64,000 bases of DNA from Acutalibacteraceae bacterium (GTDB lineage Bacteria > Bacillota > Clostridia > Oscillospirales > Acutalibacteraceae): positions 136,825 to 200,824 of the forward strand of contig JAZNVC010000001.1 in assembly GCA_045592625.1 (NCBI GenBank), written 5' to 3'. This document shows, in pieces, positions 4,160 through 15,025 of this stretch. The notes beneath the pieces were generated by a model. It was not told the DNA's origin and ran no database searches. It worked only from the letters and a program-made list of their open reading frames with translations. Both the position numbers and the translations under genes were made by a program. The stretch's first letter is position 1, and the number at the start of each line of letters is the position of its first letter.

Positions 4160-4895
4160 AAAAATTATAAAAAATTTTTTAATATTAGTTTTTTTCCTAT
4201 TGCTGTGGCAAACGGTTGCTTTTTTTGTAAATAAAAATCTGCTTATAGCTATACCCACGCCGCTAACCGTTGCACAGGCTTTTTCTCGCTTATCTAAAAA
4301 TATTTCATTTTGGCTTTCGGCAGCCTATTCTTTATACAGAGTGCTTATAGGCTTTCTTCTTGCAGTGTTTACAGCAACCCTGCTTGCTACTGTTTCGGTT
4401 AAAATAAAAATAATCAGAGAATTTATTTCTCCCCTGCTTCGCCTTATGAGAGCAGTTCCCGTTGCCGCATTTATTATTCTTGTTTTTTTATGGGTACGGG
4501 GAAAAAATATTCCTACCCTTATAGCTTTTCTGACGGTATTGCCAATAGTATGGGATGCCACCTATAACGCACTTTGCTCGGTGGATAAAAGTCTTGTTGA
4601 AATGGCAGAGGTTATGGGTTTAAAGAAAGGAAAGATTTTCAGATTTATTACCTTTCCTTCCATAAGACCTGCCTATTCCGCCGCCTTGGTGACAGGACTC
4701 GGTTTTGCCTGGAAATCTGGGGTAGCAGCAGAGGTAATAAGCCGTACCGAAATGTCACTGGGTAATCTTTTGTGGATAGGTAAAAACGCCATAGATTATG
4801 ATGAGGTTTTTGCAGTAACGGCAGTTATAGTCTTTTTCAGCGTGATTTTTGAGTATCTTTTAAAGCTTACTCTCAGCAAAGGGGTGGCGAAATGA
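4149..4895 (+). CDS. ABC transporter permease (NitT/TauT-type)
   Basis: Multi-span membrane protein with an EAA-like loop. I prefer the start MQAKKIIKNF at 4149, which overlaps the upstream stop, over the 4095 start in the ORF track. Confidence 0.8.
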   Translation: MQAKKIIKNFLILVFFLLLWQTVAFFVNKNLLIAIPTPLTVAQAFSRLSKNISFWLSAAYSLYRVLIGFLLAVFTATLLATVSVKIKIIREFISPLLRLMRAVPVAAFIILVFLWVRGKNIPTLIAFLTVLPIVWDATYNALCSVDKSLVEMAEVMGLKKGKIFRFITFPSIRPAYSAALVTGLGFAWKSGVAAEVISRTEMSLGNLLWIGKNAIDYDEVFAVTAVIVFFSVIFEYLLKLTLSKGVAK

Positions 4896-6244: not shown

Positions 6245-6273
6245 TTGACAATTACGGATTTCCGTAATATAAT
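6245..6273 (+). promoter_or_regulatory. Consensus sigma-70 promoter of the Zn-ribbon/sigma-like/dinB operon, with a candidate operator in its spacer
   Basis: TTGACA (6245-6250), 17 nt, TATAAT (6268-6273). The palindrome ATTACGGA-TT-TCCGTAAT (6251-6268, 16 of 18 positions symmetric) fills the spacer and overlaps the first base of the -10 box. Confidence 0.7.
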
Positions 6274-7064: not shown

Positions 7065-8282
7065 ATGGAACGTACAATACTTCATTGTGACCTTAATAAC
7101 TTTTTTGCATCGGTAAGTCTTCTTTATAATCAGACCTTTTACGGACAACCTGTTGCAGTTGCAGGAAGTGTGGAACAACGTCACGGAATAATACTTGCAA
7201 AAAATGAAATAGCTAAAAAATTCGGAGTAAAAACAGCAGAACCTATATGGAAGGCAAAGCAAAAATGTGCGGGACTGATTATTTTACCGCCTATTTACGA
7301 TAAGTACGAAGAATTTTCCATAAAGGCAAGAGAAATTTATCACCGCTATACCGATATGGTAGAGCCCTTTGGAATGGACGAATGTTGGCTCGACGTTACG
7401 GGAAGTAATCTTCTTTTCGGTGACGGTAAAACCATAGCCCAAAAAATAATGCGTGATATAAAAGAAGAACTGGGCATAACCGCCTCAGTTGGAGTAAGTT
7501 TTAATAAGGTTTTTGCAAAGCTTGGAAGCGATATGAAAAAGCCTGAAGGACTAACGGTCATAAGCAAAGAAAATTTTAAAGAAAAAATATATTCTCTGCC
7601 TGTAAGCGATCTTCTTTTTGTGGGAAACAGCACAGCGTCAAAACTTATGAGCAGAGGAATATTTACCATAGGCGATATAACCCTTGCGGGAGATGAAATG
7701 CTGAGCAAAATCCTTGGTAAAAACGGCATAATGCTTAAAAAATGTGCTATGGGACTGGACGACAGTGCGGTGATTACTCCAAAGAAGACAGACCACCCCA
7801 AAAGCGTGGGACGTTCACGCACCCTATCGGAAGATTTTGAGGATTTGGATGAGGTTTTCAGAGAACTGCTCTTTTACGGAGAAGAAATCGCCGAAAATTT
7901 GAGGGAAAAAGAGGTTTATGCAACAGGAGTCACCCTTATTATAAGAGATACCGATTTAAAAACCAACGAATATGCAATAAGGATAGATTCGGGAACACAA
8001 ACGGGAATTACTCTGGCACGAACGGCAATGAATCTTTTTAAAGAGCACGGGAAACTGCCCTGCCGAAGTGTAGGACTAAGGGCAACAAGACTTAAAGAGG
8101 GAGACGCAAATATACAGCTTGATATGTTTAGTTCTTGCGATGATGAGGATAAACTTTTAAAAATAGAACAGCAAATAAGCAGTATTTGTGCCCGTTTCGG
8201 AAAAAATGCCGTAGTAAGAGGCTCTCTGCTTTTTAAAAACAAAAACCTCTCTCCCGGCTTTAAGCCACCCTATTGCAAATAA
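7065..8282 (+). CDS. dinB: Y-family DNA polymerase IV
   Basis: 405 aa. N-terminal ILHCDLNNFFASV, plus the SIDE-like MDECWLDVTG and GVS.NK..AK.GSD motifs. Confidence 0.93.
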   Translation: MERTILHCDLNNFFASVSLLYNQTFYGQPVAVAGSVEQRHGIILAKNEIAKKFGVKTAEPIWKAKQKCAGLIILPPIYDKYEEFSIKAREIYHRYTDMVEPFGMDECWLDVTGSNLLFGDGKTIAQKIMRDIKEELGITASVGVSFNKVFAKLGSDMKKPEGLTVISKENFKEKIYSLPVSDLLFVGNSTASKLMSRGIFTIGDITLAGDEMLSKILGKNGIMLKKCAMGLDDSAVITPKKTDHPKSVGRSRTLSEDFEDLDEVFRELLFYGEEIAENLREKEVYATGVTLIIRDTDLKTNEYAIRIDSGTQTGITLARTAMNLFKEHGKLPCRSVGLRATRLKEGDANIQLDMFSSCDDEDKLLKIEQQISSICARFGKNAVVRGSLLFKNKNLSPGFKPPYCK

Positions 8283-8314
8283 GAGATTTTTATTTATTAT
8301 TCATATTAAAAAAA

Positions 8315-8338
8315 CCTCTGTGCATACCGGCACAGAGG
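8315..8338. terminator. Hairpin 1: terminator for dinB, and a stronger one on the minus strand
   Basis: cctctgtgc-ataccg-gcacagagg. An A7 run lies upstream, which reads as T7 on the minus strand. tcaaatttt follows downstream. Confidence 0.7.
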
Positions 8339-8344
8339 TCAAAT

Positions 8345-8366
8345 TTTCGTTTATTACCCACATAAA
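8345..8366. repeat. Left inverted repeat, copy 1 (IRL1)
   Basis: tttcgtttattacccacataaa is a perfect 22-nt reverse complement of 9802-9823. Weaker similarity extends outward (ggtca...). Confidence 0.9.
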
Positions 8367-8380
8367 TGAAGCACAAAAAC

Positions 8381-8404
8381 CCTCCGTGCATATCGGCACA
8401 GAGG
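8381..8404. terminator. Hairpin 2: duplicated copy of hairpin 1
   Basis: cctccgtgc-atatcg-gcacagagg with one mismatch. aaaaa lies upstream, which reads as a T-run on the minus strand. Confidence 0.55.
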
Positions 8405-8410
8405 TAAAAG

Positions 8411-8435
8411 TTTCATTTATTACCCACATAAACGA
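8411..8435. repeat. Left inverted repeat, copy 2 (IRL2)
   Basis: tttcatttattacccacataaacga matches the reverse complement of 9799-9823 at 24 of 25 positions. Confidence 0.9.
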
Positions 8436-8482
8436 CAGCGAAAACAGATGCATTGGTAAAATATTCCGTAGTCGCGGGTAAC

Positions 8483-8511
8483 ATTATGACACAATAATGC
8501 CGATTTGTCAA
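8483..8511 (-). promoter_or_regulatory. Near-consensus extended -10 promoter inside the IR-bracketed segment, pointing outward to the left
   Basis: The minus strand reads TTGACA (8506-8511), 17 nt, TGtCATAAT (-10 at 8483-8488). No gene lies downstream in this orientation; the transcript meets only IRL2, hairpin 2, IRL1 and hairpin 1. Confidence 0.6.
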
Positions 8512-8633
8512 TACAAAATGCATAATTTTGCAGATTTTTTTCAGTATTGACACAAATTTTAATACATTTGGGATTATTTATGGTCAATTTTGCCGTCAAA
8601 ATATACTTATAGCACGAAGGGATGTAAAGAACA

Positions 8634-9734
8634 GTGTCACGAAGAGGAGAATGTATCTACAAAAGGAAAGATGGTAGATGGGAGGCTCGGTATGTTAAGG
8701 AATTAGGTATCGACGGAAGGAAAAAATATGCCTCAATTTATGCTCCGACATATAAAGAAGCTAAAGAAAAACAAATGTACGCTATGCATAATATTGCTAA
8801 AAAATTAACAATATCGGCAAAATTATGCATAAAAGATATTACTTATGAGTGGCTTTTAAGTATTAAAAGTCGAATTAAGCCGTCCAGTTATATTAAATAC
8901 GAAAATATGTGCAAAAATCATATAATTAAGAATTTGGGAAATATTCCTCTTAATGATATAAACTCGGTGACAGTGCAAAAGTTCACAATGTTTCTTAAAG
9001 AAAACGGACGAATAGACGGAGGTAAACTATCTGATAAAACAATAAACGACATACTTATTATATTAAGCCTTATATTCAGATATGCCGAAGAACATCATTC
9101 TGCAAATCTTCCTCATATAAAAGGGGTAAGGCAAGAGAAAAAAGAGGCAAGAGTGCTTTCAAACGAAGAACAGAAGCGGCTTTGTGCCTATTGTATTAAT
9201 GACACCGATAGTTATAAATTTTCGATTTTACTTGCACTTTATACAGGAATCAGAATAGGAGAATTATGTGCTCTTAAATGGCAGGACATAACCGACACCT
9301 ATATAATAATAGATAAAACTATGCAGCGTCTTAAAACCGATAACGGAGAGACAGACATTTTTGTCACCAGTCCTAAAAGCGATTGTTCTAAGCGAATAAT
9401 ACCGTTGCCTGAATTTTTAAAAGAAACCATAAATAAAAGGCGAAAGGATGACGGATATGTACTTGCAACCGCCAGAAGTCCTTACTGTGAACCTAGGACA
9501 ATGCAACATCGATTTAAAGAAACGGCAGAACTCCTAAACTTGGAGGGGGTTACCTTTCATACCTTAAGGCATACATTTGCTACTCGTTGTGTAGAAGCAG
9601 GTTTTGATATTAAAACTCTTTCGGAAATACTTGGGCATTCTGACGTTAAAGTAACCTTAAACAGATATGTTCATTCTTCCTTTGAATTAAAGCAAAAAAA
9701 TATGCAAAAGCTGATGTTTATAGATTTTGTTTAA
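8634..9734 (+). CDS. Tyrosine site-specific recombinase (phage-integrase family)
   Basis: 366 aa with a GTG start. N-terminal arm-type motif YKRKDGRWEARY. C-terminal catalytic region has R..GE..AL.W, HTLRHTFAT and LGHSDVKVTLNRYVH (the R-H-R-Y set). Confidence 0.9.
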   Translation: MSRRGECIYKRKDGRWEARYVKELGIDGRKKYASIYAPTYKEAKEKQMYAMHNIAKKLTISAKLCIKDITYEWLLSIKSRIKPSSYIKYENMCKNHIIKNLGNIPLNDINSVTVQKFTMFLKENGRIDGGKLSDKTINDILIILSLIFRYAEEHHSANLPHIKGVRQEKKEARVLSNEEQKRLCAYCINDTDSYKFSILLALYTGIRIGELCALKWQDITDTYIIIDKTMQRLKTDNGETDIFVTSPKSDCSKRIIPLPEFLKETINKRRKDDGYVLATARSPYCEPRTMQHRFKETAELLNLEGVTFHTLRHTFATRCVEAGFDIKTLSEILGHSDVKVTLNRYVHSSFELKQKNMQKLMFIDFV

Positions 9735-9746
9735 ATGGTCAAAAAA

Positions 9747-9792
9747 ATGGTAAGAACAGAGAGAAGCTCTCTTGTTTTCTTACCATTTTTTA
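9747..9792 (+). terminator. Terminator after the recombinase gene
   Basis: ggtaagaacagagag..ctctcttgttttcttacc hairpin followed by a long T-run. Confidence 0.7.
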
Positions 9793-9798
9793 TTTTTT

Positions 9799-9823
9799 TC
9801 GTTTATGTGGGTAATAAACGAAA
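9799..9823. repeat. Right inverted repeat (IRR)
   Basis: tcgtttatgtgggtaataaacgaaa is the reverse complement of IRL1 and IRL2 (see those entries). Confidence 0.9.
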
Positions 9824-9917
9824 TGACCGATTATTCAATTTGTTATTTATTTTTCCCTTAAAATGAAAATTTAAACAATATAAAAATATCTGCTGCATAC
9901 AGGAGTGAACTTCAGAA

Positions 9918-10448
9918 TTGAATAAAAAACCTAAAATTATTCTGAAAAGTATATCTGCAACTATAGTTTCCCTTGTTGTAATCTTTGCAGTGCTTATTGC
10001 AGGAGTGCAAATCTTCGGCATAAAGGTTTATACCGTTTTATCGCCTTCAATGGAACCTGAATATAAAACAGGTGCCGTTATATATGTTAAAAAGGTTGAC
10101 CCAAAGGAACTTGAGGTTGGAGACGTTATAACCTTTTCGTCGTTAAATCAAACAACGGTAACACATAGAATTGTGGGCGTAGAAGAAAAAAACGGAGTTC
10201 TTTATTTTGAAACCAAGGGCGACGCCAATAAAAGTGCCGATAGCGGCAGGGTGCATATGAATAACGTGCTGGGCAAACCCATATTTAAAATTTCCTATTT
10301 AGGTTATGCTGCAAGTTTTATTACAAAAAAACCCGGAATCTATTTAGGTATTGCTATAGGAATTATTCTTACAGTACTTGTATTTGTGATTGACTTTATT
10401 ACGGGTGATGAACCCGATAAAAATAAAAAAAGGAGAAAAACAAAATGA
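9918..10448 (+). CDS. sipW: Signal peptidase I, archaeal/ER type (SipW-like)
   Basis: 176 aa with a TTG start after an AGGAG RBS. N-terminal TM segment, catalytic-Ser box LSPSMEP, His box VTHRIV, a GDAN box, and a C-terminal TM segment with a basic tail. Confidence 0.85.
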   Translation: MNKKPKIILKSISATIVSLVVIFAVLIAGVQIFGIKVYTVLSPSMEPEYKTGAVIYVKKVDPKELEVGDVITFSSLNQTTVTHRIVGVEEKNGVLYFETKGDANKSADSGRVHMNNVLGKPIFKISYLGYAASFITKKPGIYLGIAIGIILTVLVFVIDFITGDEPDKNKKRRKTK

Positions 10449-11086
10449 AAAAAATGAAGACAGTACTGCTGTGCATTGGTTTGAGTTTATTGGTTTTTGC
10501 TTCGGTAATGGGGACACTTTCCTATCTTACAGATACAGAAGAAGTTGTTAACACCTTTACCGTAGGTAATGTCGATATAACTCTTGATGAAGCAGATGTA
10601 GATGAACTTGGTGCAGTAGTGGGCACAGAAAGAGTTAAGGAGAATGAATATCACTTAATTCCCGGCGGGGTTTATGTAAAAGACCCAACCGTAACCGTTA
10701 AAAAGGGCAGTGAGGCTTCATATATCCGTATGCTTGTTACCATAAGCGATATGGCTGATATCAAATCGGTTTTCGGAAATGATTTTCTTCCTGAAAATTA
10801 CGTAGAAGGCTATGACAAGGCTGTTTGGAAGTGTGTAAAAATTACCGATAACGGCAATGATACCGCCACCTATGAATTCCGCTATAAAGAATCTGTAGAT
10901 AAGGTTAGTGCAGATAAGGTTTTGGAACCTCTTTTCAAAAAAATAAAGGTTCCCGGTGAAATAAACGGCGAAGAACTTGCCAAAATAAGCGAAATGAAAA
11001 TTTCTGTAGTAGGTAACGCTATACAGAAGGCAGGCTTTGAAAACGAGGATGCTGCTTGGGCAGCTTTTGACCTTCAGATGAATTAA
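10445..11086 (+). CDS. TasA/camelysin-like secreted protein with a SipW-cognate signal peptide (P1)
   Basis: 213 aa. N-terminus ..FASVMGTLSYLTDTEEVVNTFTVGNVDITLDE. The start overlaps the sipW stop (ATGA). Confidence 0.75.
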   Translation: MKKMKTVLLCIGLSLLVFASVMGTLSYLTDTEEVVNTFTVGNVDITLDEADVDELGAVVGTERVKENEYHLIPGGVYVKDPTVTVKKGSEASYIRMLVTISDMADIKSVFGNDFLPENYVEGYDKAVWKCVKITDNGNDTATYEFRYKESVDKVSADKVLEPLFKKIKVPGEINGEELAKISEMKISVVGNAIQKAGFENEDAAWAAFDLQMN

Positions 11087-11102
11087 GAAAGGCGGCAAAA
11101 AT

Positions 11103-11711
11103 ATGAAAAGAAAGCTTTTTACAAAACAGGGTATCTTTAAAACCGTACTGTTAATGCTCAGCGTAATAACACTTGTGTTCAGTATTGTTAGCGGTACTTT
11201 AGCATGGCTTGTTGCCGAAACAAAACCCGTTGTAAATACCTTTACATATGGCGATATCAATATCAATTTAGAGGAAAGCGATACAAACGACGGTGACGGA
11301 GACCCTTATACCAATACCTATCGTATGGTACCGGGAAATCAAATAGAAAAGGACCCAACCGTAACGGTAAAAAAAGACAGCGAAGACTGTTGGCTTTTTG
11401 TGAAAATTGAAAAATCGGTTGACCCCGCTAAATTTGATGATTTTATGGAGTTTACCATTGCTGACGGCTGGACACCCTTAAAGGATGTTGACGGCGTTTA
11501 CTATAGAGCAGTTGACAGTAGTAAGGAGGATATAAAATTCCCCGTACTTAAAGATAACAAAGTAAAGGTTAAAGAAGATGTTACAAAGGAAATGTTTAAT
11601 ACACTTTCCGAAATGCCTACCCTTTCCTTTACCGCTTATGCAGTTCAGCGTGACAGCGAAATAACCGAAATAGATTCAGCCGAAAAGGCTTGGACTATAA
11701 CACAAAAATAA
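11103..11711 (+). CDS. TasA/camelysin-like secreted protein with a SipW-cognate signal peptide (P2)
   Basis: 202 aa. N-terminus ..SGTLAWLVAETKPVVNTFTYGDININLEE. It shares KDPTVTVKK.SE with P1. Confidence 0.75.
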   Translation: MKRKLFTKQGIFKTVLLMLSVITLVFSIVSGTLAWLVAETKPVVNTFTYGDININLEESDTNDGDGDPYTNTYRMVPGNQIEKDPTVTVKKDSEDCWLFVKIEKSVDPAKFDDFMEFTIADGWTPLKDVDGVYYRAVDSSKEDIKFPVLKDNKVKVKEDVTKEMFNTLSEMPTLSFTAYAVQRDSEITEIDSAEKAWTITQK

Positions 11712-11733
11712 TATTTTAAAGGAGTAAAAGAAA

Positions 11734-13293
11734 ATGAAAAACATTAAAAAATCACTTTTAATGGGACTTAGTTTTGTGCTTGTGGCTGCTCTTGCCATGG
11801 GCGGAACTTTGGCTTACCTCACCTCTACCGATGATGACGTTAACGTTATGACACTTGGCAAAGTATCTATTACTCAGCACGAGTATCAGCGCGTTGTAAA
11901 CGCAGACGGTACTTACGCTACTGCAACTATCGACAATCAAACAAGCTATGTGCTTGAGAAATTCGTTCAGGCTAAGCCCTTGCTTCCCATTGTTGGCGAC
12001 CCAAGTCAACCCGGTGACAGTGCAGCCTACGCAGGTTATGATACCATCCCTGTTCGTATGTCTCAGGTAGGTTCATACGGCGGTATGGACGTATTTGCAG
12101 GCAAAAACGCTCAGGATAAGTTCGTTACCTTAGAAAACACCGGCAAGACTGATGCCTTTGTTCGCACCCTTGTTGCAATCGAAATCGGCAACGGTAATGC
12201 ATCCTTGATCGGTACTTCTTATCACAAAACTTGGACTAAGAATTCTATTGGTACCATCGTAATCGACGGCAACAACTATGCTTTGACCGAGTATGTTTAT
12301 GCTGGTGCGAACGGTGTGCGTCACGAAAATGGTATCCTCCCTGCAGGCGATACCTCTTATCCCAACCTTTCTCAGGTTTACATCAAACACAACGCTACCA
12401 ATGAGGACTGCGAAGCACTTGACGGCAACGGCAACGGCACCCTCGATATCCTCGTTCTTTCTCAGGCTGTTCAGGTTGCAGGCTTTGCTGATGCTGAAAC
12501 CGCTCTTGACACCGCATTTGGTGACATTACTACCACCAATCATCCTTGGAGTGTAAACGCTCCGGCTATTCCCACGGTTGTTTCTACAGCTGATGAATTA
12601 GCTACAGCACTTGCAAACGGCGGCGAGGTTATTTTAACTAAAGATATTGATGCCGATGCTGATACTACTATCACCATTCCCGCAGGTGTTTCTACCACAT
12701 TGAACCTCAACGGCAAGACCCTTGATTTTGTTACCGATAATGCTGACAAGAATAATGACGGAGGAGTAACAAGCGCAGACAATGAGGTTGCAATTGACGT
12801 TAGAGGTACTTTAAATGTTAAGAACGGTACTATCACAACCAAGCACACTGCTGAAAACTTTGCTTGGAACGCTTGTACCGAGGTGTTTTATGTAGCATTT
12901 AACGGCACTTTGAATATTGAAAATGCAACTATTGAAAACCTTGGCGGTTCTGATATGGCCTTTGCAATTGACCTTGTGAACGCAACCAATGTAACCCTTA
13001 ACATTAGCAACTCTACCATCAAGTCTTCTTACATTCCTGTTCGTGTATTTAACAATGGTTCCGGTATGAACAATGTTACTATCAAAGATAGCACACTTGA
13101 CGGTGTAAGTCGTGCATTCTGGGTACATATCTATTCGAACAAAGATAATGGTGGCAGAGGCGTAAAAGATGCAACCCTCAACCTCGATATCTTTGGTAAC
13201 GGCAACACATTCAATGCATCAAATCCGAATAGAATTATTGAGTTCGGCTTTGAAGATGAAATCAATTTTGATGCCAACGGCAATCAACTTTAA
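11734..13293 (+). CDS. Fusion protein P3: SipW-cognate signal, TasA-like N-module and a parallel beta-helix-like C-module
   Basis: 519 aa. N-terminus GGTLAYLTSTDDDVNVMTLGKVSI. C-terminal repeats of the NGT(I/L)..xN.T(I/L) type (NVKNGTITT, FNGTLNIENATIEN, VTLNISNSTIKS, NNVTIKDSTLDG). Confidence 0.75.
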   Translation: MKNIKKSLLMGLSFVLVAALAMGGTLAYLTSTDDDVNVMTLGKVSITQHEYQRVVNADGTYATATIDNQTSYVLEKFVQAKPLLPIVGDPSQPGDSAAYAGYDTIPVRMSQVGSYGGMDVFAGKNAQDKFVTLENTGKTDAFVRTLVAIEIGNGNASLIGTSYHKTWTKNSIGTIVIDGNNYALTEYVYAGANGVRHENGILPAGDTSYPNLSQVYIKHNATNEDCEALDGNGNGTLDILVLSQAVQVAGFADAETALDTAFGDITTTNHPWSVNAPAIPTVVSTADELATALANGGEVILTKDIDADADTTITIPAGVSTTLNLNGKTLDFVTDNADKNNDGGVTSADNEVAIDVRGTLNVKNGTITTKHTAENFAWNACTEVFYVAFNGTLNIENATIENLGGSDMAFAIDLVNATNVTLNISNSTIKSSYIPVRVFNNGSGMNNVTIKDSTLDGVSRAFWVHIYSNKDNGGRGVKDATLNLDIFGNGNTFNASNPNRIIEFGFEDEINFDANGNQL

Positions 13294-13336
13294 TTCATAA
13301 AAATTTACCCATTCCGGAAAGGAGAACATACATATA

Positions 13337-14896
13337 ATGTCTAAACTTAAAAAGGTACTCTTAATGTGTACCGCATATGTTCTGGTAGCCGCACTGGCTA
13401 TCGGCGGAACCTTAGCTTACCTCACAAGCACTGATGATGACGTGAACGTAATGACACTTGGTAATGTATCAATTAAGCAGCATGAGTATGAGCGTGTTGT
13501 GAACGCTGACGGCACCTTTGCTACCGACACCATTGACAATGTAACCAGCTATGTATTAAAAGACTTTACACAAGCAAAACCACTACTTCCTTCTGCTATA
13601 GACACAACTACCTGGGAAGGCTGGGATTGGGATTCCACCGTTGTACGTATGACTCAGGTAGATTCTTACGGTTATATGCAGGTATTTAAGGCCGCTTCCA
13701 ATGCGCAGGATAAATTTGTTACCGTAGAGAACACTGGCGATACCGATGCTTACATCCGTACTCTCGTTGCTATTGAAATCGGTTCTACTGACGGTAGTTT
13801 GATTGGTACTTCTTATCACTCTACATGGACTAAGAACGAGGTAGGTACTATCGTGGTCGACGGTAACACCTATTTTGTATTTGAATATGTGTACAACGGG
13901 GCTAACGGTACTCTCCATGATAATGGTATCCTTCCCGCTGGCGACACCGCTTACCCCAACCTTTCTCAGGTTTACATCAAGTCTGCGGCCACCAACGAGG
14001 ACATGGTTGCCCTCGACGGTAACGGCAACGGCACCCTCGATATCCTCGTTCTTTCTCAGGCTGTTCAGGTTGCAGGTTTTGACAATGCACAGACTGCTCT
14101 GGACACCGCTTTTGGTAAGTCCTCTGAAAAGGCTGTTGAGTGGTTCGGTGGCATTGCGATCCCCGATGTTGTTGCATCTGCAGACGAAGCTTATGATGCC
14201 TTTAGTGCATTTGACCAGTCCGGAAAAAGCGGTTCGGTTATTTTAAACTCGGATATTAATACCGCTGATGCAGATAGCCGCTGGTCCTCGAACAGAGAGT
14301 ATGCTCTTAGAGCGGCAGGCACTGACGTTACGTTCGACCTCAACGGACATACGGTAAACCACGATACCGCTTACCAAAATGGTAAAAATACCGGTTATAC
14401 CTACCTCTTTACAACGGCTTATAACGGAAAATTGACCGTTAATGGTGAAGGCGGCTCCATCTACTCCGAAAACGCTGATGGTTTTACCTGTATCTTCTAT
14501 GCACAGGGTCCCAGCGAGATCGTGATCAATGGTGGTGAATATCACGCTGTTGCCGGTGTCCCTGTATGGGCGGGAAATGGCGCCAAGGTAACAATAAACG
14601 GCGGTTCGTTCACTTCGAGCAAGAGTGGTAACGATCAGGAGATGATCTATTCCAGCGGTGGTGTAATTGATATCTACGGCGGATTTTTCCATAGTGATTG
14701 GGAGAATCGTCCCGTTAATGTTGCGGACGCTAACCGTAGCACAGGTTTTATCAATATTTACGGCGGAACCTTCGTAAACTTTGATCCTTCCACCGGCGGT
14801 AACGATCCTGGCAATATCAGAGTTATGGAAGGCTACAAGGTCGTTTCCGAAGCTCAGGCAAACGGTGATGTCTGGTACACCGTGGTTGCTGAATAA
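13337..14896 (+). CDS. Fusion protein P4: paralog of P3 with a different beta-helix-like C-module
   Basis: 519 aa. The first ~270 aa align with P3. The C-terminal module has INGG.F-type repeats (VINGGEYH, TINGGSFT, DIYGGFFH, NIYGGTFV). Confidence 0.75.
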   Translation: MSKLKKVLLMCTAYVLVAALAIGGTLAYLTSTDDDVNVMTLGNVSIKQHEYERVVNADGTFATDTIDNVTSYVLKDFTQAKPLLPSAIDTTTWEGWDWDSTVVRMTQVDSYGYMQVFKAASNAQDKFVTVENTGDTDAYIRTLVAIEIGSTDGSLIGTSYHSTWTKNEVGTIVVDGNTYFVFEYVYNGANGTLHDNGILPAGDTAYPNLSQVYIKSAATNEDMVALDGNGNGTLDILVLSQAVQVAGFDNAQTALDTAFGKSSEKAVEWFGGIAIPDVVASADEAYDAFSAFDQSGKSGSVILNSDINTADADSRWSSNREYALRAAGTDVTFDLNGHTVNHDTAYQNGKNTGYTYLFTTAYNGKLTVNGEGGSIYSENADGFTCIFYAQGPSEIVINGGEYHAVAGVPVWAGNGAKVTINGGSFTSSKSGNDQEMIYSSGGVIDIYGGFFHSDWENRPVNVADANRSTGFINIYGGTFVNFDPSTGGNDPGNIRVMEGYKVVSEAQANGDVWYTVVAE

Positions 14897-14923
14897 CTTG
14901 ATTTAGTCTTGTCTTCATAAAGT

Positions 14924-14984
14924 CCACCCACTCCTCTCCGTGGGGAGTGGGCGGCAATCAAAGTTCCTTTTGACTCTTTGATTG
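14924..14984 (+). promoter_or_regulatory. Two adjacent stem-loops between P4 and P5 without a T-tract (candidate processing, stability or attenuation element)
   Basis: Hairpin A: cccactcc-tctccgtg-ggagtggg (14927-14951). Hairpin B: caatcaaag-12 nt-ctttgattg (14955-14984). Confidence 0.4.
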
Positions 14985-15025
14985 CTATATACAAAAAACA
15001 AATATAAAAGGAGAAGATACATATA

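Follow-up and report, generated by a model that had tools for sequence, protein, structure and literature searches.

The 1.4-kb module that occupies the gap between dinB and sipW on the plus strand is in all likelihood a self-contained invertible-promoter phase switch, which carries its recombinase on board and was assembled in what its sequence suggests to be the OFF orientation. In the following, the window refers to the whole 64-kb stretch of DNA that was analysed (64,000 nucleotides from an Acutalibacteraceae bacterium), and L and P numbers refer to the loci and recombinase proteins compared with it. The module comprises a site-to-site segment of 1413 bp, whose features and flanks are, in window coordinates:

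7065..8282, plus strand: dinB (DNA polymerase IV; Pfam IMS, 1.2e-40, and IMS_C), the fixed left flank, convergent with the switch promoter.
8313..8340, both strands: hairpin 1, a predicted terminator outside the switch, with an 11-bp stem (6 GC pairs) and TTTTTTT on the minus strand.
8345..8371, plus strand: site L1, outer left, TTTCGTTTAT-TACCCAC-ATAAATGAAG, forming inverted repeat I2 with 9789-9823.
8381..8404, minus strand: hairpin 2, terminator-like, between L1 and L2, with a stem of 9 bp and then GTTTTT (minus strand).
8411..8437, plus strand: site L2, inner left, TTTCATTTAT-TACCCAC-ATAAACGACA, forming inverted repeat I1 with 9784-9823.
8483..8511, minus strand: the putative outward-facing switch promoter (TTGACA, 17 nt, TGtCATAAT), with a predicted start at ~8476.
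8575..8602, plus strand: TTATTTATGGTCAATTTTgCCGTCAAAAT, ahead of the recombinase gene, the non-coding block with the highest conservation, near-invariant in 6 species (alignment A1).
8634..9734, plus strand: gene of a tyrosine recombinase of 366 aa, GTG start, inside the segment (Pfam Phage_integrase, 5.8e-29; Phage_int_SAM_3, 4.5e-14).
9742..9791, both strands: a predicted two-way terminator at the 3' end of the recombinase gene, in the segment, with 15-bp perfect arms (inverted repeat I9).
9797..9823, minus strand: site R, right, TTTCGTTTAT-GTGGGTA-ATAAACGAAA, with a spacer in the opposite orientation to those of L1 and L2 (inverted repeats I1, I2 and I24).
9824..9917, plus strand: sipW leader, lacking a good fixed promoter.
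9918..10448, plus strand: sipW, a type I signal peptidase (SipW/archaeal type), TTG start, first gene of the operon (TIGR02228, 106.3 bits, cut-off 51.85).
10445..16837, plus strand: five co-directional genes for secreted proteins (213, 202, 519, 519 and 603 aa), the presumed cargo of the switch.

The switch promoter is defined as a match to the sigma-70-type consensus, and its conservation was judged across relatives. On the minus strand, TTGACA at 8511-8506 and TGtCATAAT (TGTCATAAT) at 8491-8483 are separated by 17 nt between the hexamers, giving 11/12 consensus positions plus the TG of an extended -10 element. The earlier note had described this motif as the best promoter-like sequence of the region. 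Indeed, it ranked first in a consensus scan of 8200-10000, and the pattern TTGACA-N14-TGNCATAAT occurs a single time in the 64 kb, where shuffles predict 0.03 occurrences. Matches at 11/12 positions number ten on both strands of the window, two of which have the TG. In relatives whose recombinases are 75-93% identical, neither the hexamers nor the TG nor the 17-nt spacing varies. The same elements are unchanged in the five closest species of alignment A1, which covers the interval between site and recombinase in 6 species; here the promoter spacer is partly variable and the stretch from the -10 element to the site is the least conserved part. The clade with 63-64% identical recombinases (L015, L025) has TTTACA-17-TGcTATAAT, i.e. 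again 11/12 plus TG, as the -35 element loses one match and the -10 element gains one. A more distant family with 56% recombinase identity shows TTGAAA-17-TATAAT, TTGAAA-17-TATACT or TTGCAA-17-TATAAT (10-11/12). In nearly all loci compared, the promoter lies within the segment, ~40-65 bp from the site that precedes the recombinase gene. In L026, the best minus-strand promoter falls outside the repeat and the internal promoter is weak; a strong promoter match is therefore not present in every family member. At the sequence level, the segment thus contains an internal promoter that faces the target in one orientation only, which we read as a strong outward promoter of the sigma-A type.

The motif ATGCATAAT(A/T)TTGC is present in three copies, at 8518-8531 (plus), 8784-8797 (plus) and 8817-8831 (minus). 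The first is positioned directly upstream of the -35 element of the switch promoter, and the other two form an inverted pair in the 5' part of the recombinase gene, where conservation is confounded by coding constraint.

The segment is bounded by inverted repeats built as recombinase sites. There are three 27-bp sites, two at the dinB side (L1, L2) and one, inverted, at the sipW side (R), and each is composed of a 10-bp arm, the 7-bp asymmetric spacer TACCCAC and a second 10-bp arm. Such an arm-spacer-arm layout is expected of the core site of a tyrosine recombinase. The exact 17-mer TTTATTACCCACATAAA is found three times in the window, each time at the dinB-sipW locus (near-matches expected: 0.65), and no further site copies were detected in the 64 kb. 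L1 and L2 are both included in a 66-bp tandem duplication of hairpin plus site, whose units are 89% identical (D1). The inner arm of L2, ATAAACGACAGCG, is the same as in the site of L001, and L2 is therefore the counterpart of the single dinB-side site present in relatives with one site per side.

Downstream of the promoter, the minus strand runs through L2, hairpin 2, L1, hairpin 1 and the 3' end of dinB. This is the path that had been proposed beforehand, and the coordinates bear it out. For hairpin 1, the folding energies of the minus and plus strands are -18.6 and -18.1 kcal/mol, respectively; with its T7 tail, this hairpin is predicted to stop minus-strand transcripts that originate at the switch promoter, and it probably also ends dinB on the plus strand. 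Owing to U-G wobbles, hairpin 2 is more stable when read with the promoter (minus strand, -16.0 kcal/mol) than on the plus strand (-12.0 kcal/mol). In promoter sense it is followed by U5 in all three species concerned (window, L006, L014). We infer that it acts as a terminator in the sense of the switch promoter only. For the two-way terminator, the folding energies are -22.8 (plus strand) and -22.3 kcal/mol (minus strand); it has U-runs on both strands and is kept in L001, L002, L003, L006, L014 and L015.

Both left hairpins of the window (8309-8435) are of the 'CCTCTGTGC' type. In L006 (4190-4215) and L014 (4188-4215) the dinB-side hairpin is of the 'CTCTTAAC' type, like that of L001 and L002. 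This pattern suggests that the tandem 66-bp units of the window have been homogenised, e.g. by gene conversion.

The recombinase belongs to the tyrosine recombinase superfamily (PF00589, 101.5 bits, cut-off 27.1). Candidate catalytic residues, assigned by motif position, are R207, K253, H309-x-x-R312, H335 and Y345. Among solved structures, XerA, Tn1549 Int and lambda Int come closest, and the catalytic region aligns to XerA (5hxy). Two classes of DNA invertase were considered and rejected. The model of FimB/FimE-type tyrosine-type DNA invertases (NF007371) gave a partial match of 21.2 bits versus a cut-off of 222, so the protein resembles this family in function without belonging to it. Hin/Gin/Cin serine invertases share the architecture alone, as domain searches returned only tyrosine-recombinase domains. 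Exact-protein searches with the recombinase, SipW and DinB of the window retrieved no record. A metagenome scan for the recombinase provided one useful relative, L003, whereas L004 and L005 proved to be unrelated integrases (21-24% identity). Many recombinase homologues (P0009, P0050, P0054, P0057, P0088, P0101, P0104, P0107) reside on contigs of ~1380-1450 bp, a size close to that of the site-to-site segment and expected of assemblers when both orientations coexist and the graph is interrupted at the repeats.

On the plus strand upstream of the recombinase gene, no convincing promoter was found: the candidates (TTGACA at 8547; block 8575-8607) have spacings off consensus and their -35 is not conserved. 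The near-invariant block at 8575..8602 is a candidate for the promoter/operator of the recombinase gene or for an accessory (arm-type) binding site. The motif ATGGTCAA occurs on the same strand just inside both segment ends, at 8580-8587 and 9735-9742 (plus), the first copy lying within the most conserved non-coding block, ATGGTCAATTTTnCCGTCAAAA. Copies containing ATGGTCA are also found near both segment ends in L017, a member of the 56%-identity family. These copies may be accessory or arm-type sites for the N-terminal domain of the recombinase, or control elements of its gene.

The dinB-switch-sipW locus was recovered in both orientations from relatives whose recombinases are 63-93% identical:

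Promoter away from sipW (window-like): L002, L007-L011, L013.
Promoter toward sipW (flipped): L001, L003, L006, L012, L014, L015, L025.

The comparison of L012 with L007, which are independent metagenome contigs from a sister species, demonstrates a clean site-specific inversion at the strain level. The two sequences are 100% identical in each of the three blocks; the middle one, of 1423 bp, is collinear, whereas the flanks on either side of it are reversed. The block overlaps are the 26-bp sites, i.e. the breakpoints fall within the sites. Thus, both orientations exist in otherwise identical DNA at an orthologous locus, and the inversion of the segment that had been postulated from the window alone is observed in its relatives. 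The recombinase protein P0004 is present with identical sequence on 12 contigs; among the matches listed, six are window-like and one (L012) is flipped. L003, which was recovered separately and is 96-99% identical to L007 at the DNA level, is flipped as well. Site R is a breakpoint in every orientation comparison. In L001, L003 and L012, the conserved promoter faces sipW and one site alone intervenes. These arrangements, together with sipW leaders that lack a good fixed promoter, fit the proposal that the promoter would drive sipW after inversion. Switching in the window's own strain appears probable from its sequence.

A nested state becomes apparent in the closest relative, L006, whose recombinase is 93% identical and whose flanks are 90-94% identical at the DNA level, for which reason it probably represents a sister species. 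Window positions 8345-9823 align in forward direction to 2713-4190 of L006 (91%), while the flanks match in reverse (90-94%), and L014 shows the same alignment pattern. Both loci have one site at dinB and two at sipW, with the homologue of hairpin 2 between the latter, so that the order is promoter, site, hairpin 2 with its U-run, site, sipW. The arms are swapped as predicted for an exchange within TACCCAC, and the inner arm of L1 in the window, ATAAATGAAG, is found in the outer sipW-side site of L006. L1 is hence the breakpoint of the inversion that relates the window to L006 and L014. An inversion through L1 that carries hairpin 2 along had been anticipated, and exactly this arrangement, window 8345-9823 inverted, is present in the two relatives. 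The earlier note had counted three states from the duplicated left site; three sites in fact give four arrangements:

State A (window, as assembled): the promoter faces dinB through hairpins 2 and 1; sipW expected OFF.
State B (L2 x R inversion of A): the promoter, at 9723-9751, faces sipW with one site between; sipW expected ON.
State C (L006, L014, L025; L1 x R inversion of A): the promoter faces sipW; output expected low or OFF.
State D (reached from C by an L2-type or from B by an L1-type inversion): the promoter faces dinB; sipW expected OFF.

According to this model, the recombinase would exchange strands in the spacer of L1 or L2 and of the oppositely oriented R, and the segment would flip. 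In state A, sipW should be OFF because the promoter runs into hairpins 2 and 1, because the internal two-way terminator at 9742-9791 would block read-through from the recombinase gene into sipW, and because the leader is promoterless. In state C, output is probably low or OFF in L006 and L014, since hairpin 2 travels with the promoter; in L025 no hairpin is located between the two sites. Only one of the four arrangements, state B, would probably be fully ON. This functional logic is a deduction from sequence and comparison. For the L2 x R inversion, the promoter had previously been placed at 9680-9710, which is ~40 bp off: the coordinates map to 9723-9751, with a start at ~9758. The L1 x R inversion would bring it to 9657-9685, near that earlier figure. 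The predicted junctions are AGAGGTAAAAGTTTCATTTATTACCCACATAAACGAAAAAAATAAAAAATGG (left) and CATCTGTTTTCGCTGTCGTTTATGTGGGTAATAAACGAAATGACCG (right) for state B, and GAGGTCAAATTTTCGTTTATTACCCACATAAACGAAAAAAATAAAAAATGG (left) and GCACGGAGGGTTTTTGTGCTTCATTTATGTGGGTAATAAACGAAATGACCG (right) for state C.

All four three-site genomes are in state A or C, and states B and D are represented by none of them (0/4). That L1 has taken part in recombination is evident from the exchange that separates states A and C. L2 matches, in its inner arm, the single site of the species with one site per side, which is demonstrably active, and therefore L1 and L2 are probably both active. Given that states B and D are absent from the four genomes, the role of L2 as a crossover site is deduced by this match, and L2 could instead be an accessory site. 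Site doubling is recurrent among the orthologous loci: L015 has two sites per side (2719-2785 and 4171-4237), which create a 67-bp long inverted repeat, and L025 has two sites on the sipW side, 46 bp apart (2215-2284). The doubled sites of these loci enclose no hairpin, hence site doubling is not always tied to a terminator.

The operon controlled by the putative switch has the composition of a SipW-type signal peptidase operon, i.e. a TIGR02228 protein with TIGR04088 neighbours. SipW scored 116.7 bits with the Bacillus SipW model, below the equivalog cut-off of 190. A signal for SipW-type signal peptides was obtained for four of the five cargo proteins, and the 202-aa protein gave no match. 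With TIGR04088 (cut-off 19), the 213-aa protein reached 29.5 bits and the second 519-aa protein 20.1, while the other two proteins with a signal remained just under the cut-off (18.3 and 17.0). There is also a weak match of the cargo to camelysin (M73; 19.3 bits versus a gathering cut-off of 22.5). Sequence searches for relatives with solved structure yielded nothing usable for two cargo proteins. The two 519-aa proteins are encoded by tandem paralogues (11734-13293 and 13337-14896, plus strand), and the relatives' versions carry a weak Pectate_lyase_5 mark; therefore the cargo may include beta-helix-like surface proteins besides TasA-like fibres.

Could sipW be transcribed from a promoter or governed by a leader regulator of its own, such that the invertible promoter modulates expression or serves the recombinase region or dinB antisense transcription? 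On the plus strand of 9824..9917 no promoter match of at least 9/12 exists (best 8/12), and in eight sipW leaders, those of the window and of seven orthologous loci, the best sigma-70-like scores amount to only 7-9/12, as compared to 11/12 plus TG for the switch promoter. A consensus scan could miss non-consensus, alternative-sigma or activator-driven promoters, and a leader block, TATTTATTTTTCCCTTAAAATGAAAATTTAAAC, is conserved in the window, L006 and L014. However, the same cassette precedes other sipW operons whose left flanks are unrelated, the switch promoter points away from the recombinase gene, and two terminators separate it from dinB; overall, we regard a fixed control of sipW as unlikely. 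The order of promoter, site and hairpin 2 with its U-run, which is common to states A and C, raises the question whether the real product is a regulatory sRNA, terminated at hairpin 2 (~100 nt) or at hairpin 1 (~165 nt), with inversion being secondary. Such an RNA would be made, since site and hairpin 2 follow the promoter in both observed three-site states, and the greater stability of hairpin 2 on the promoter-sense strand agrees with it. Against a function of this RNA, the transcribed stretch between the -10 element and the site contains indels and shows the lowest conservation in alignment A1, the flipped relatives with one site per side have no hairpin between promoter and sipW, and an Rfam scan of 8200-10000 for known riboswitches and sRNAs found nothing near any family threshold. 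The simpler reading is that such a transcript would be a by-product of insulating the OFF state, and an sRNA as the principal product seems improbable to us.

The recombinase is of the integrase type (N-terminal extension, SAM-like domain, catalytic domain), its distant homologues (up to 43% identity) are found in phage-like contigs, and related cassettes adjoin different cargo genes, as would be the case if the segment were a small mobile element or an integrase remnant with inverted repeats, and the two orientations independent insertions. Yet its position between dinB and sipW is constant across species over a range of 63-93% recombinase identity, the divergence of the L006 cassette (91%) tracks that of its flanks (90-94%), a clean inversion at the sites is the sole difference between contigs that are 100% identical, and the 64 kb contain no further site copy; we consider this explanation extremely improbable. 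A plasmid search returned no match, and all phage matches had less than 45% identity. An integrative element, i.e. a phage or ICE with direct-repeat att sites, was rejected on the grounds that the sites are inverted, the recombinase is the sole gene and the position is fixed across species.

Taking the locus as an invertible-promoter switch, the closest known system in functional terms would be, by analogy, Hin of Salmonella (hin-fljBA), where recombinase and outward promoter are likewise inside the segment and the adjacent operon is driven in one orientation. Hin is the cited example of a recombinase within the invertible segment, an occasional layout (PMC5903667). It differs in being a serine recombinase dependent on Fis and an enhancer, whereas here a tyrosine recombinase and arm-spacer-arm sites are present; moreover, the third site and the terminators insulating the OFF state are particular to the present locus, and the cargo is a sipW secretion/fibre operon rather than flagellin. 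Promoter inversion by tyrosine recombinases, which turns surface components ON and OFF as proposed here, is also the principle of E. coli fimS (FimB/FimE), Proteus MrpI and C. difficile RecV (cwpV, flgB). In these systems the recombinase is encoded outside the element, either adjacent or, for RecV, distant, and the elements measure ~150-350 bp, in contrast to the 366-aa recombinase within a 1.4-kb segment described here. Campylobacter fetus sap, in which a promoter segment inverts alone or together with neighbouring DNA to yield more than two arrangements, is RecA-dependent and swaps coding cassettes. The nested promoter inversion is a shared trait; the difference lies in the short site-specific sites and in the terminator that travels with the promoter.

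The B. subtilis tapA-sipW-tasA operon resembles the cargo operon in combining a SipW-type peptidase with proteins bearing SipW-type signal peptides, but here the camelysin/TasA-family (M73) match is sub-cut-off, sipW comes first and is followed by five substrate genes, and the cargo has no detectable relative with solved structure. Control in B. subtilis relies on the repressors SinR and AbrB rather than on DNA inversion. If our reading is correct, sipW output would be set by a DNA flip instead of a repressor circuit as in Bacillus, and a set of SipW-dependent extracellular fibre or surface proteins would be phase-variable in uncultured gut or rumen-type Oscillospirales. A literature search found no paper linking a sipW operon to an invertible promoter. 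The principle is ordinary and the build unusual, given the on-board integrase-type recombinase, the insulation of both states by terminators and the third site with its travelling terminator.

The 56%-identity family has the same layout, namely site, outward promoter, recombinase, hairpin and inverted site. Its members adjoin other sipW operons with unrelated left flanks (clear for L028; the internal promoter of L026 is weak) and also other surface or membrane genes (L016-L024, L031-L035). Tentatively, and with more doubt than confidence, we propose that these loci belong to a widespread, undescribed family of portable cassettes in Oscillospirales/Clostridia, each combining an integrase-type tyrosine recombinase, an outward promoter, a two-way terminator and sites ahead of sipW or other surface-protein genes, and that in this clade an extra site and a strand-specific terminator would make the two-state cassette a nested device of four states, only one of them ON. 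Such a device would possess a 'deep OFF' state two inversions away from ON, which would lower the ON fraction and add memory. Its three sites and travelling terminator would constitute a natural multi-state recombinase device, and the compact recombinase, the 27-bp sites and the insulating terminators might serve as reusable parts. The usual short-read searches for invertons limit the element size, so recombinase-bearing switches of ~1.4 kb may be under-counted in Firmicutes. The invertons of gut bacteria catalogued in the PhaseFinder and DeepInverton surveys are similar to the present locus in that a promoter is enclosed by inverted repeats, surface-associated genes are adjacent and an invertase is nearby. 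In the hCom2 survey, invertons were few in the Clostridia-like Firmicutes_A (median 3 per genome), and the invertases located near invertons generally lay outside the switch, which did not regulate them.

On the other side of the module, dinB matches NCBIfam DNA polymerase IV models with E-values down to 2.7e-95, although the matches do not reach the curated cut-offs of these models. The same dinB left flank is present in L001-L003, L006-L015 and L025. A consensus promoter matching at 12/12 positions, TTGACA-ATTACGGATTTCCGTAAT-ATAAT, is located at 6245-6273 on the plus strand, between a divergent pair of genes for HTH_XRE and M78 (ImmA-like) proteins and an operon that consists of a gene for a 121-aa protein, a gene for a sigma70_r4-like protein of 111 aa and dinB. 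Its spacer holds the interrupted palindrome ATTACGGA-T-TCCGTAAT. From its sequence, the dinB operon looks like a repressor-controlled, possibly damage-inducible unit. The promoter is identical in L001-L003, L006-L010 and L014, and differs by one base in L015.
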